Shown: positions 40,401 to 43,400 of the stretch, in pieces
Layout of the letters: the number at the start of each line of letters is the position of its first letter
Position numbering within the stretch: the stretch's first letter is position 1
Assembly (NCBI GenBank): GCA_013265495.1
Contig: MU057719.1
Span: forward strand, 870,001-930,000
Source: Vicugna vicugna
Lineage: Eukaryota
DNA: 60,000 nt
Direction: 5' to 3'
Position numbers and translations under genes: made by a program
Notes under the pieces: model-generated
Database searches by the model: none
The model's input: only the letters and a program-made list of their open reading frames with translations
What the model was told of the DNA's origin: nothing

Positions 40401-43400
40401 TGGGGTCCCAGTCAGGAGTCCTTGAGGCCAGGGAGCGGGGGAGAGGAGGTGGGCCCAGGGGTGGGGCCGCTCCAGGGAAGCACCAGTAGTGGCAGCGGTG
40501 GTCTGGCCTGGGGCAGTGGCTTCCTCGTGGGGCGCCGGGCTGGGCGACCCCTGCCCTGCACAGGGCCCGGCCCAGCAGCCCCGCACCGTCACTGGCTTGG
40601 GCAGATGCTGGCAGAAGTCGGCTGGCACGGGCACCTGGGCCCGGGGTCCAAGGCAGGCATCATGCCGGCGCTGAATGCCTTCCCCACACGAGACAGAGCA
40701 CTGCCAGGAAAGAGGGGGAGGAGTCAGGGCTCACCTTGCCAGGGAGTCTGCAGTGACCACAGGCCAGGCAGGCTCTGATACGCTCTTTGCACAACACAGG
40801 AGGCGGATATGTGTGTCCATTCGATAGATAAGAAGACTAAGGCTGAGAGAGGTTACCATGCAGGGGCCACACGGGGAGGAGGAGCAGGGACTCAAGCCCA
40901 GGTCTCTAACTGTCATCCGGAGGCCTCCCTGCCCTCTAAACCCTAGAGCAGGGACCAGGAGGCATGGCTTCCTCCTTCCGCTCTCCAACACTCACCGCAG
41001 CCATGTCTGCCCTGCCATCCGGCCCTGCCCTGCCCTGTCCGAGCTGTCATCTCCCCCGGCCTGGATGCCCAGGGTCCTTCTCACTGAGGCAGCGGGAGGC
41101 TGTCTGCCTCCTCTCCCCTCCATGCTATAAACAAACCGCTATGGGGGGCACCCAGCCCTGTTTACCTTGTCTCCCCAGAGCCTTGCGAGGTGCTGGCGTA
41201 GGGTGGGATTTCCTAATCCGTGTGGGGTTGTCAGCCCTCTGTCTTCTGGCGTCTCCAGACTTCGGGCCTCTCAAGACCTAGCTGCCCACCCTGCCCCATG
41301 TCCTGGGCCTTGCTGTGTCTTCCACCTCCTGACTGCTCCTTCCCCAGCAGACCCGAGTCTCCCCTTCCTTCCGGGGGATCACAGTGAATGAAAGCCCCAC
41401 CAAGGTCCCCAGATGTGAGGCTCCTTTGCTGACGCACTGACCTGCAGCCAGGCGCTGACGTGCCAGCGGTAGGTGCAGGTGGCAGTCATGCAGGGAATGC
41501 GGGTCTGCGGCCGCACCAGACCCGCACAGGCCCGCACATCCACCGCCGTGTCCTGGCCTTGCTCCAGCTGCACGCAGGCCACCGAGCGTGTGGCAGTGCC
41601 GAGACCACAGCTGGCTGAACACGGGCCAAGGGACATGACTTTCCACCTGCAGGGAGAGAAGACCCCAGAGAGAGGTTACGCCTCCCCAGAGATGGCACTG
41701 CCCCATGGGCTCCTCAGACGGTCAACCAGGACAGTTCTAGGCCACTGGGATCCAGAAGTACGGCCCTGAACCCCTCCCGTCTACTCAGGGTAGGACATGG
41801 GCGACTTACATTCTTTTCTGGGCATTTCTGTCTGACCCAGAAGAGCATTTCATTATTTAAAATGCAAAATTACAAAGAAGAAACCACAAGGGAATTGTGA
41901 ACGAAGAAGGTGACTATTCGCCCTTCCCCATCGGGCTCCACCCCGTCTCCGGACCTGTCCCACGTGGCTGCGGCGGTGGGCGCTGTGCCCCAGCTGGCCC
42001 CACCTCGGCTCCACTCAGATGCTGCCTCCTCCACTCTGAAGCCCCCCAGGCCTGCCCACAACACACCGTCATTGGAACCCACAGCACTGCGGGCGTTTTG
42101 CTGGACCGTCACCCCTGACACTGGGTGCAGCCTGCTGGGCGATCTGTTTCCTGTGCCACTGCGCTGCCCTTTAGCCCCCAGGGCCTGGCCCGGCGGCGGC
42201 ACACACCAGGCACTCAGGCTGCTGCCGCACACCTCGGCGCTGCCGATCTGGGCGGGCAGGGCTCCTGCGGCTCTGGGCGAGGCAGCCCCTGGCACTGCGT
42301 GTCCAGCAGGACCTCCTCGTCCTCGTCCTACCCTTGAGCCCGGCCACAAGACAGCACCCTCTGCGCGGCCCCTCCCCCGCAGCTCACACTGCAGGCTGCC
42401 AGTTTGTAACGCCACCTGGAGCAAACCAGCGTCGGGGGCGCCCCTCACTTCCCCAGACTGGGAAGGGCCGGAAAGGGTCTCTCTCTGGGGGCGAATTTCA
42501 CGTCCCCACTGAGAGGCCAGGCACGATGGGCAGAGAACGTACAGAAAATCCCATTTTATGGAAGGGGAAGCCAAGGGCAGACATGTCCAAAGGTGGGGGC
42601 GGGGTGGGGGCAGGGCACCCAAGGGGCCCTGCAAGGATGTGTGCCTGCGGTAGGAACCCCAGCCCCAGCACGCGGACCTGTCCCGCCAGGCCCCTAGTCC
42701 TTCCCGCTGTGCTGCCGCATCGCTCCGACACGACACATCAGACTCTGTGGCCTCCACCAGTCTTGTTTGTGGTCTCCCCCCCCTTTCCCACAGCGACTGC
42801 TCCGGGAGGGCAGGGATTCCTGTCTGTCTTGTTCACTGCTGGGTCCCTGGTGCCGGAACAGCACCTGGGCGTAGTAGGTTCTCAAAAAACAGCAAGTGAT
42901 GAAACAAATGACCCATCAACCACGTGCGCCCACAGCCGCCCAGATCCTGGGTGACGGACTTCACACACTTTAAGCCCCCACAGCCCTCCAAGGCACCGGT
43001 GTGGCTCACTCCTGCAGGGGAGGACGCCAAGGGGCAGGAGCTTACTGGGAGGTGATGACGCCCGTCCAAGATGCCCCCCTAGGTCCTGCTGTCTCTCGGG
43101 AAGGGGCCCACCTGGCAGGGCAGGGCTCCGGGCTGCAGTCCTCGAGGGGTCTGGGCCGAGGTGACGGCCAGCACTTAGAGTGAGGCAGGGGGATGGAGCG
43201 GCCTTGGTCCATCCTCACACAGCGAACAGCCAGCGGCACCTGTCCCCCTCCACAGGTCACTGGGCATGGTGCCAAGGCTCGGGTCTCCCACCTGCAGAAA
43301 GGAAAGGCCAGTGCCCCGCAGGAAGCCACGCCCAGGGTCAGGCTCCTTCCTCCGCGGGGGACCCAGGCTGCTGCCCCTCCGCACAGTCTCCCTCCCCCTG

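Follow-up and report, generated by a model that had tools for sequence, protein, structure and literature searches.

Deficiency of ADAMTS13 leads to thrombotic thrombocytopenic purpura, and the mouse, the rat and other animals are used as models. In the eight-repeat human protein, as in its mouse counterpart, a TSP1 repeat annotated as the sixth lies between the fifth and the seventh (TSP1 repeats are referred to below as T1, T2 and so on, or as TSP1-1, TSP1-2 and so on). The review PMC8449270, which cites Zhu 2019 and Muia 2019, states that the human enzyme remains able to alternate between a closed and an open form after removal of TSP3-TSP6, and pigeon ADAMTS13, naturally devoid of TSP3-TSP6, is reported to have kept allosteric regulation. 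Here, a stretch of 60,000 nucleotides from Vicugna vicugna (assembly GCA_013265495.1, contig MU057719.1, positions 870,001 to 930,000; this whole stretch is termed the window) was considered. The window contains ADAMTS13 on its minus strand, and between T5 and T7 this gene presents two exon-like sequences, namely, an intact exon, designated T6a, and a decayed counterpart of human TSP1-6, designated T6b. It is very probable that T6a is an old neighboring exon used to encode the sixth repeat and that the human-type T6b has decayed here.

As a feature, T6a is known, since the exon is already found in RefSeq models of the genus Vicugna and corresponds to the annotated sixth repeat of the mouse; the value of the present analysis thus lies in interpretation and not in discovery. 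The searchable full-text literature, which does not cover Muia 2019, the likeliest source, yielded no statement on paralogy of the human and mouse T6 repeats or on a nine-repeat ancestor. Nor was any mention found there of a ninth TSP1 repeat or of an alternative one, with "additional thrombospondin" returning only the usual "seven additional repeats." The available portions of PMC8449270, PMC9826392, PMC12296723, PMC12584400, PMC7109750, PMC11326488, PMC6706451 and bioRxiv 10.1101/2025.05.28.656520 are silent on such a repeat.

T6a is very probably an ordinary coding exon for the sixth TSP1 repeat of ADAMTS13. An initial annotation, made from the window sequence, had placed an exon with intact splice sites 115 nt past the exon numbered 22, and all of its coordinates proved to be right (Table 1). 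At the acceptor (cctttcctttctgcag/G at 43292/43291), a pyrimidine-rich tract and an AG lie upstream, while the donor reads GCCAG/gtgggc at 43112/43111. The codons split by the two junctions are TG/G (W) and AG/G (R), such that both introns flanking T6a are in phase 2. Translation of positions 43290-43114 on the minus strand gives the same 59-residue peptide as reported in that annotation, containing six Cys residues and a CPVTCGGG motif, which we take to be an O-fucosylation site, and reading CSPEPCPAR at its C-terminal end. That the peptide corresponds to a complete six-Cys TSP1 module, as had been claimed, is borne out by comparison with the Pfam TSP1_ADAMTS profile (PF19030), with residues 1-57 matching positions 1-55 of 55 at a score of 35.9 bits (cutoff 23.8). 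When 27 T6a rows were aligned, CPV[TS]CG was invariant throughout, as were four Cys columns out of six, and a fifth Cys column was conserved in at least 80% of the rows. T6a is single-copy in the 2.03-Gb source assembly, and the T6a of the window is 100% identical to that of the Vicugna RefSeq models and 98% identical to that of Camelus.

Table 1. Positions, in the window, of features in and around the sixth TSP1 repeat of ADAMTS13.
Feature	Position	Strand	Remarks
T6a exon (sixth TSP1 repeat)	43112..43291	minus	180 nt; phase 2/2; six Cys; complete TSP1
T5-T6a intron	43292..43406	minus	115 nt; gt...ag; pyrimidine-rich before acceptor
TSP1-5 second-half exon ("exon 22")	43407..43536	minus	acceptor cctgcag/GC; donor CCTG/gtgagt
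TSP1-7 and first TSP1-8 residues exon ("exon 24")	41442..41646	minus	acceptor ctccctgcag/G; donor CTGCAG/gtcagt
T6b pseudoexon (orthologue of human TSP1-6, human exon 23)	42233..42415	minus	inactivated
In-frame TAG within T6b	42328..42330	minus	E here in Camelus, pig and human
Ancestral T6b donor site	42246..42247	minus	now AT, not GT

Examination of the gene as a whole by tblastn revealed that models from Camelus dromedarius, pig and Vicugna map collinearly, exon by exon, from 58816 to 37275, with the collinear matches covering TSP1-1 to CUB2, such that the gene is the ADAMTS13 orthologue. Identity of individual exons to the Vicugna RefSeq models ranges from 84 to 100%, with T6a and seven other exon matches at 100%. 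The TSP1-5 second-half exon, encoding 44 residues, is 95% identical to residues 1015-1058 of Vicugna model P0145 (model identifiers are those of the present analysis), and the T7 peptide of the window is 100% identical to that of Vicugna over 59 columns.

The initial annotation had also predicted splicing of exon 22 to T6a and of T6a to exon 24, yielding eight repeats, and it is in this manner that the public Vicugna models are built. Specifically, among the 15 of 30 cluster members listed, all three Vicugna RefSeq isoforms read APCPAW-WETRAL, i.e., T5 joined to T6a and T6a to T7, with T6a and T7 identical to those of the window, and none includes T6b. As for Camelus, nine listed NCBI isoform models join T6a straight to T7, two listed models (P0131 and P0153) contain an intact six-Cys T6b in place of T6a, P0152 stops after T6a and P0157 before it, and an older GenBank model (P0021) presents T6a joined to a truncated T6b. 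No listed Camelus RefSeq isoform combines T6a with T6b, each being present only in place of the other; to judge by these predicted models, this looks like mutually exclusive use. Steric mutual exclusion was considered and rejected, given that the 696-nt intron between T6a and T6b is long enough and that many species include both. Spliced Logan contigs were obtained in both forms: P0003 (868 aa on 2925 nt; 99% identical to sheep) and P0029 (98.6% identical to Pteropus) contain T6a and T6b, while the rodent-like P0049 and P0079 contain T6a only. Twenty-four sequencing runs, six of which are recorded as RNA, hold 0.28-0.36 of the sampled words, a result that bears neither way on splicing.

The symmetry of T6a (180 nt, phase 2/2) means that skipping it would preserve the reading frame, and the exon could accordingly be an alternatively spliced cassette, with some transcripts skipping it, thereby encoding seven repeats, or including T6b and being degraded. 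More than one model form is indeed seen in Rousettus (P0024, P0034 and P0112), Rhinolophus ferrumequinum (P0035 and P0117), Equus asinus (P0031 and P0110), Diceros (P0033 and P0097) and Camelus, where T6a-only and T6b-only models occur, and the T6b pseudoexon has retained an acceptor and a GT. Such cassette behavior is nonetheless considered unlikely in the window lineage, given that T6a is present in three of three listed Vicugna isoforms and T6b in none, these isoforms being predicted ones.

The human-type T6 exon is present yet dead in the source genome. The loss of human TSP1-6 that had been deduced earlier was thus found to reflect a pseudoexon that begins 696 nt downstream of T6a and that, while bearing an intact acceptor (ctccag/G at 42416/42415), contains an in-frame stop codon, has suffered a 15-nt deletion that removes five residues (PCSPE) relative to Camelus and leaves five rather than six Cys residues, and has lost its ancestral donor. 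A substitute GT is found 15 nt downstream, at 42232-42231 (CCCAG/atcggcagcgccgag/gtgtgc). The T6b models of Camelus end five residues (SAAPR) beyond those of other species, which fits use of this downstream GT; the sequences compared thus suggest that the donor shift is probably shared by camelids and dates to the camelid stem. Camelid T6b also presents LSC in place of an otherwise conserved LYC and is 71-79% identical to pig T6b, with the corresponding values for cattle, whales and horse being 92-94%. Compared over 63 residues, the window T6b pseudoexon and pig T6b are 71% identical; the nearest relative of the pseudoexon is Camelus T6b (89% over 53 columns), and the stretch is single-copy in the source assembly.

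It is very improbable that these lesions are assembly or sequencing errors and that the animal has a nine-repeat ADAMTS13. Admittedly, the lesions come from one assembly, and the same region contains a suspicious perfect tandem duplication and a run of N. Still, the lesions are three and independent, namely, the stop, the loss of the donor and the 15-nt deletion, which is in frame; Camelus models derived from other assemblies share both the donor shift and the unusual substitutions; and T6b is omitted from the Vicugna RefSeq models, its single-copy status in the assembly likewise speaking against error.

The tandem duplication mentioned above comprises two 744-bp copies (44434-45177 and 45178-45921) that are 100% identical and lie 1.1 kb upstream of T6a. 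Each copy holds the TSP1-5 first-half exon (about 45025-44900 and 45769-45644, minus strand), the peptide of which occurs once only in Vicugna and Camelus models. Most probably, the duplication is an artefact of the assembly or else arose very recently. The run of N is a 347-N assembly gap (58098-58444) within the 5' part of ADAMTS13.

The relation of T6a and T6b to other TSP1 repeats was addressed in two trees. The first, a tree of single TSP1 exons of the kind proposed at the outset, was computed with IQ-TREE (LG+G4, quick mode) from 252 single-repeat segments over 62 columns, comprising the distal repeats of 34 models and three window translations, with 14 proximal T1-like matches being left out. 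T6a and T6b formed separate, exclusive clades. In the T6a clade (28 of 28 rows; SH-aLRT 93), the window exon is joined by the mouse, guinea pig, squirrel and elephant sixth repeats, among others, whereas the T6b clade (26 of 26 rows; SH-aLRT 91) unites the window pseudoexon with those of human, Cercocebus, dog and hamster. The second tree was based on motif-anchored segments, 203 in all, taken from 28 proteins. It recovered the T6a repeats of tetrapods (mammals, frog, salamander, lizard and turtles) as a clade comprising 16 rows, with a support of 99, and its T6b clade also took in bird and sturgeon. No T6a was found in the sturgeon, teleost and bird models of this motif-anchored set, and in sharks and a ray the repeat located between T5 and T6b was seen to group with the T3 of these same fishes. 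With some 60 alignment columns, deep branches are weakly resolved; at this level, T3 was nearest to T6a in the first tree (85), with T3, T6a and T6b forming one group (78).

Pairwise identities tell the same two repeats apart. In agreement with the earlier remark that the T6a peptide matches no human repeat, its best match in human model P0126 is T6, at only 44%, as compared to 71% for mouse and 100% for Vicugna. Identity of the window T6a to human T6 is 44-47%, while human and Vicugna T3, T5, T7 and T8 are 77-83% identical. T6a and T6b are themselves about 45% identical to one another, both being some 60 residues long and of the same phase. Between human and mouse, the sixth repeats are 38% identical (T2, T3, T5, T7 and T8: 72-83%; T4: 47%), and between mouse and hamster 43% (75-95%; T4: 68%), as opposed to 81% between human and hamster (64-86%; T4: 49%) and 71% between mouse and Vicugna (63-85%; T4: 52%). 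As judged from these sequences, it is close to shown that human "TSP1-6" and mouse "TSP1-6" are non-orthologous domains.

Falling as it does in the T6a and not the T6b clade, the window exon is orthologous to the sixth repeat of the mouse and to the additional repeat found in nine-repeat species, and not to human TSP1-6. T6a is not orthologous to any human repeat, but the term "extra," used for this exon previously, takes human as its point of reference, T6a being the standard sixth repeat of the mouse and of many other mammals. There is scarcely any chance that T6a is a diverged true orthologue of human TSP1-6 that had been misjudged: its slot right after T5, its near-equal length (180 nt), its phase and its CSPEPCPAR end are all like those of human T6, yet the true counterpart, which shows 71% identity to pig T6b, lies 696 nt downstream and has its place in the T6b clade, T6a is far closer to the mouse sixth repeat (71%) than to human T6 (44%), and 46 spanning models contain both repeats in tandem. 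The downstream T6b, the tandem models and the separate clades rule out this explanation.

Other distal repeats also pair, with T4 grouping with T7 (69 rows; support 99) and with the T2-position repeat of frogs and sharks matching T5 best. At the sequence level, such pairing suggests an old block duplication in which T2-T3-T4 would have given rise to T5-T6-T7.

When the T6a peptide was used as query, 92 of 93 candidate proteins were matched at E<=0.001, with identities of 54-98%, and every named protein among them was ADAMTS13 or a hypothetical protein; the exon is thus no product of chance. Identity to the window T6a was 98% for Camelus dromedarius, 81-93% for pig, cattle, deer, sheep, whales, bats and pangolins, 80-86% for New World monkeys, 83% for a partial match in gibbon, 71-78% for mouse and other murids, 66-71% for marsupials, 66% for the frog Ascaphus and 54-58% for lizards; turtle T6a repeats are 51-53% identical to that of pig. 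A recent camelid-specific duplication of an adjacent TSP1 exon that replaced T6, a scenario that recalls how readily tandem TSP1 exons duplicate and the perfect 744-bp duplication, with the preceding exon, 1.1 kb upstream, can be dismissed as vanishingly improbable, being ruled out by same-position T6a orthologues (51-98%) in other mammals, turtles, lizards, frogs and a salamander and by the tetrapod T6a clade (support 99).

A corresponding search with pig T6b (residues 1015-1076 of P0001) matched 88 of 89 candidates, including human, Old World monkeys, dog, cats and hamsters. In total, 157 proteins were classified using the pig repeats as queries, 131 of which span the region and 26 of which are partial. 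Among the spanning models, 46 contain T6a followed by T6b, 39 contain T6a only and 46 contain T6b only; these counts refer to gene models and not to species, and, as the models were retrieved with a T6a or T6b query, forms devoid of both cannot appear. In all models containing it, T6a directly follows T5. This three-way split supports the ancestral nine-repeat gene that had been envisaged, combined with loss or skipping particular to individual lineages. The accompanying idea that hairpin length is held constant found no support, given that about a third of the spanning models (46 of 131) carry both repeats, and what had been called a domain swap is better described as two ancient adjacent exons differentially retained by lineage.

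In catarrhines, 30 cluster members were examined, 22 of which span the region and eight of which are fragments without it. T6b alone is present in 20 of the 22, including six named human models. The remaining two, both from Nomascus (P0254 and P0062), contain a six-Cys T6a lacking its first residues (WETRA) and no T6b, a pattern that is either a real difference or a gene-build artefact. Both repeats are present in the Callithrix and Saguinus models, while an Aotus model contains T6a only. That the human lineage has apparently lost T6a is read from protein models and not from DNA; a T6a remnant in human intron 22 is plausible. Elsewhere, models from Panthera (P0037), Canis (P0125), Cavia (P0084), Elephas (P0076) and Dasypus (P0087) contain no T3 repeat, such that either distal repeat number varies at more than one position or these models are incomplete.

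Considering these findings together, T6a and T6b are very probably two old adjacent exons, both of which are spliced in many tetrapods to give nine repeats. At the camelid stem, T6b would have lost its original donor and begun to drift; later, in an order of lesions that we infer, the window lineage (llama/alpaca) would have gained the stop and the Cys-removing 15-nt deletion. With this stop and deletion, T5>T6a>T7 becomes the sole open frame. Eight repeats would thus be kept, as in human, the sixth of which would be a paralogue of the human repeat and an orthologue of that of the mouse. Structurally, T6a would add a single TSR module to the distal arm, placed between T5 and T7 and within the T3-T6 part. 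As that part is dispensable for the closed/open switch of the human enzyme, according to PMC8449270, the presence of T6a, T6b or both is probably tolerated functionally, and such tolerance would account for repeated independent loss or skipping in mammals. The camelid details, i.e., the stem donor shift and the later stop and deletion, appear to be ordinary further lineage-specific loss.

Several points weigh against this account. The T6b lesions are known from one assembly only, and the pseudoexon still has an acceptor of good quality and, 15 nt downstream, a GT that could be used, such that some transcripts may include T6b, carrying its premature stop. The junctions 43407>43291 and 43112>41646 are predicted from public models and the open frame. 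Several exons of the window differ from the Vicugna RefSeq models, that of T5 by two residues, which indicates that those models derive from another assembly or from a sister species. Finally, when pig was compared with frogs, turtles and lizard, identity was 51-63% for T6a and 59-69% for T6b, as against 35-44% for T5 and 37-47% for T7. T6a and T6b are thus the best-conserved distal repeats at long range, which argues against either being a mere spacer, and yet each is missing from many mammalian models.

The nine-repeat state is claimed here for the tetrapod ancestor and, deep branches being weakly resolved, is no more than suggested for jawed vertebrates. A more far-reaching proposal is that T6a and T6b, as an ancient paralogous cassette pair, are subject to regulated alternative use that has functional consequences and would be new to the literature, a combination regarded as possible but doubtful. 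Such a pair would have been in place by the time of the tetrapod ancestor, sharks having a positional counterpart, and different vertebrates would use it as both, either or alternatives. Were this so, the choice between T6a and T6b in species that have both exons, such as Camelus, Rousettus, Rhinolophus and Equus, would be regulated splicing that alters the distal arm, and camelids would stand midway, with Camelus having both repeats and the llama/alpaca lineage having fixed T6a.

Should mouse T6a and human T6b indeed be different domains, whatever has been attributed to "T6," be it epitope maps, antibodies or mutations, would not be transferable between the two species, studies relying on deletion of T3-T6 domains would have to be read against a nine-repeat ancestor, and natural "experiments," such as that of the camelid considered here, would reveal which repeat is losable. 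Moreover, annotation projected with human as guide would miss or mislabel the T6a exon.

Of the known systems, mouse ADAMTS13 is most like that of the window: its sixth repeat (residues 953-1011 of P0077, also present in the IAP-b truncated isoform P0085) is the T6a orthologue, being 71% identical and in the same clade, it occupies the same position between T5 and T7, and the mouse model contains no T6b. Human TSP1-6 (residues 979-1040 of P0126) is like T6a in its length class, in its T5-T7 slot and in belonging to an eight-repeat protein but is a paralogue (44-47% identity) from a separate clade, with its own counterpart in the window being the pseudoexon at 42415-42233. The nine-repeat models of pig, cattle, sheep, whales, horse, rhinoceros, bats, pangolins, marsupials, turtles, lizards and frogs (e.g., P0001, P0002, P0017, P0040, P0093 and P0069) also contain T6a directly after T5, at 53-93% identity, yet differ in that an intact T6b follows, whereas that of the window is dead. 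The Camelus isoforms (P0151 and others) share with the window a 98% identical T6a and, in T6b, the donor shift (with the extra SAAPR) and LSC; unlike the window, however, Camelus T6b has an open frame and six Cys residues and replaces T6a in two listed predicted isoforms (P0131 and P0153). Lastly, in the pigeon protein and in the human delT3-6 construct, as presented in PMC8449270, the number of repeats in the T3-T6 region also varies, with regulation reported as kept, but what is seen there is a deletion of four repeats, whereas the window presents a choice between two paralogous repeats.

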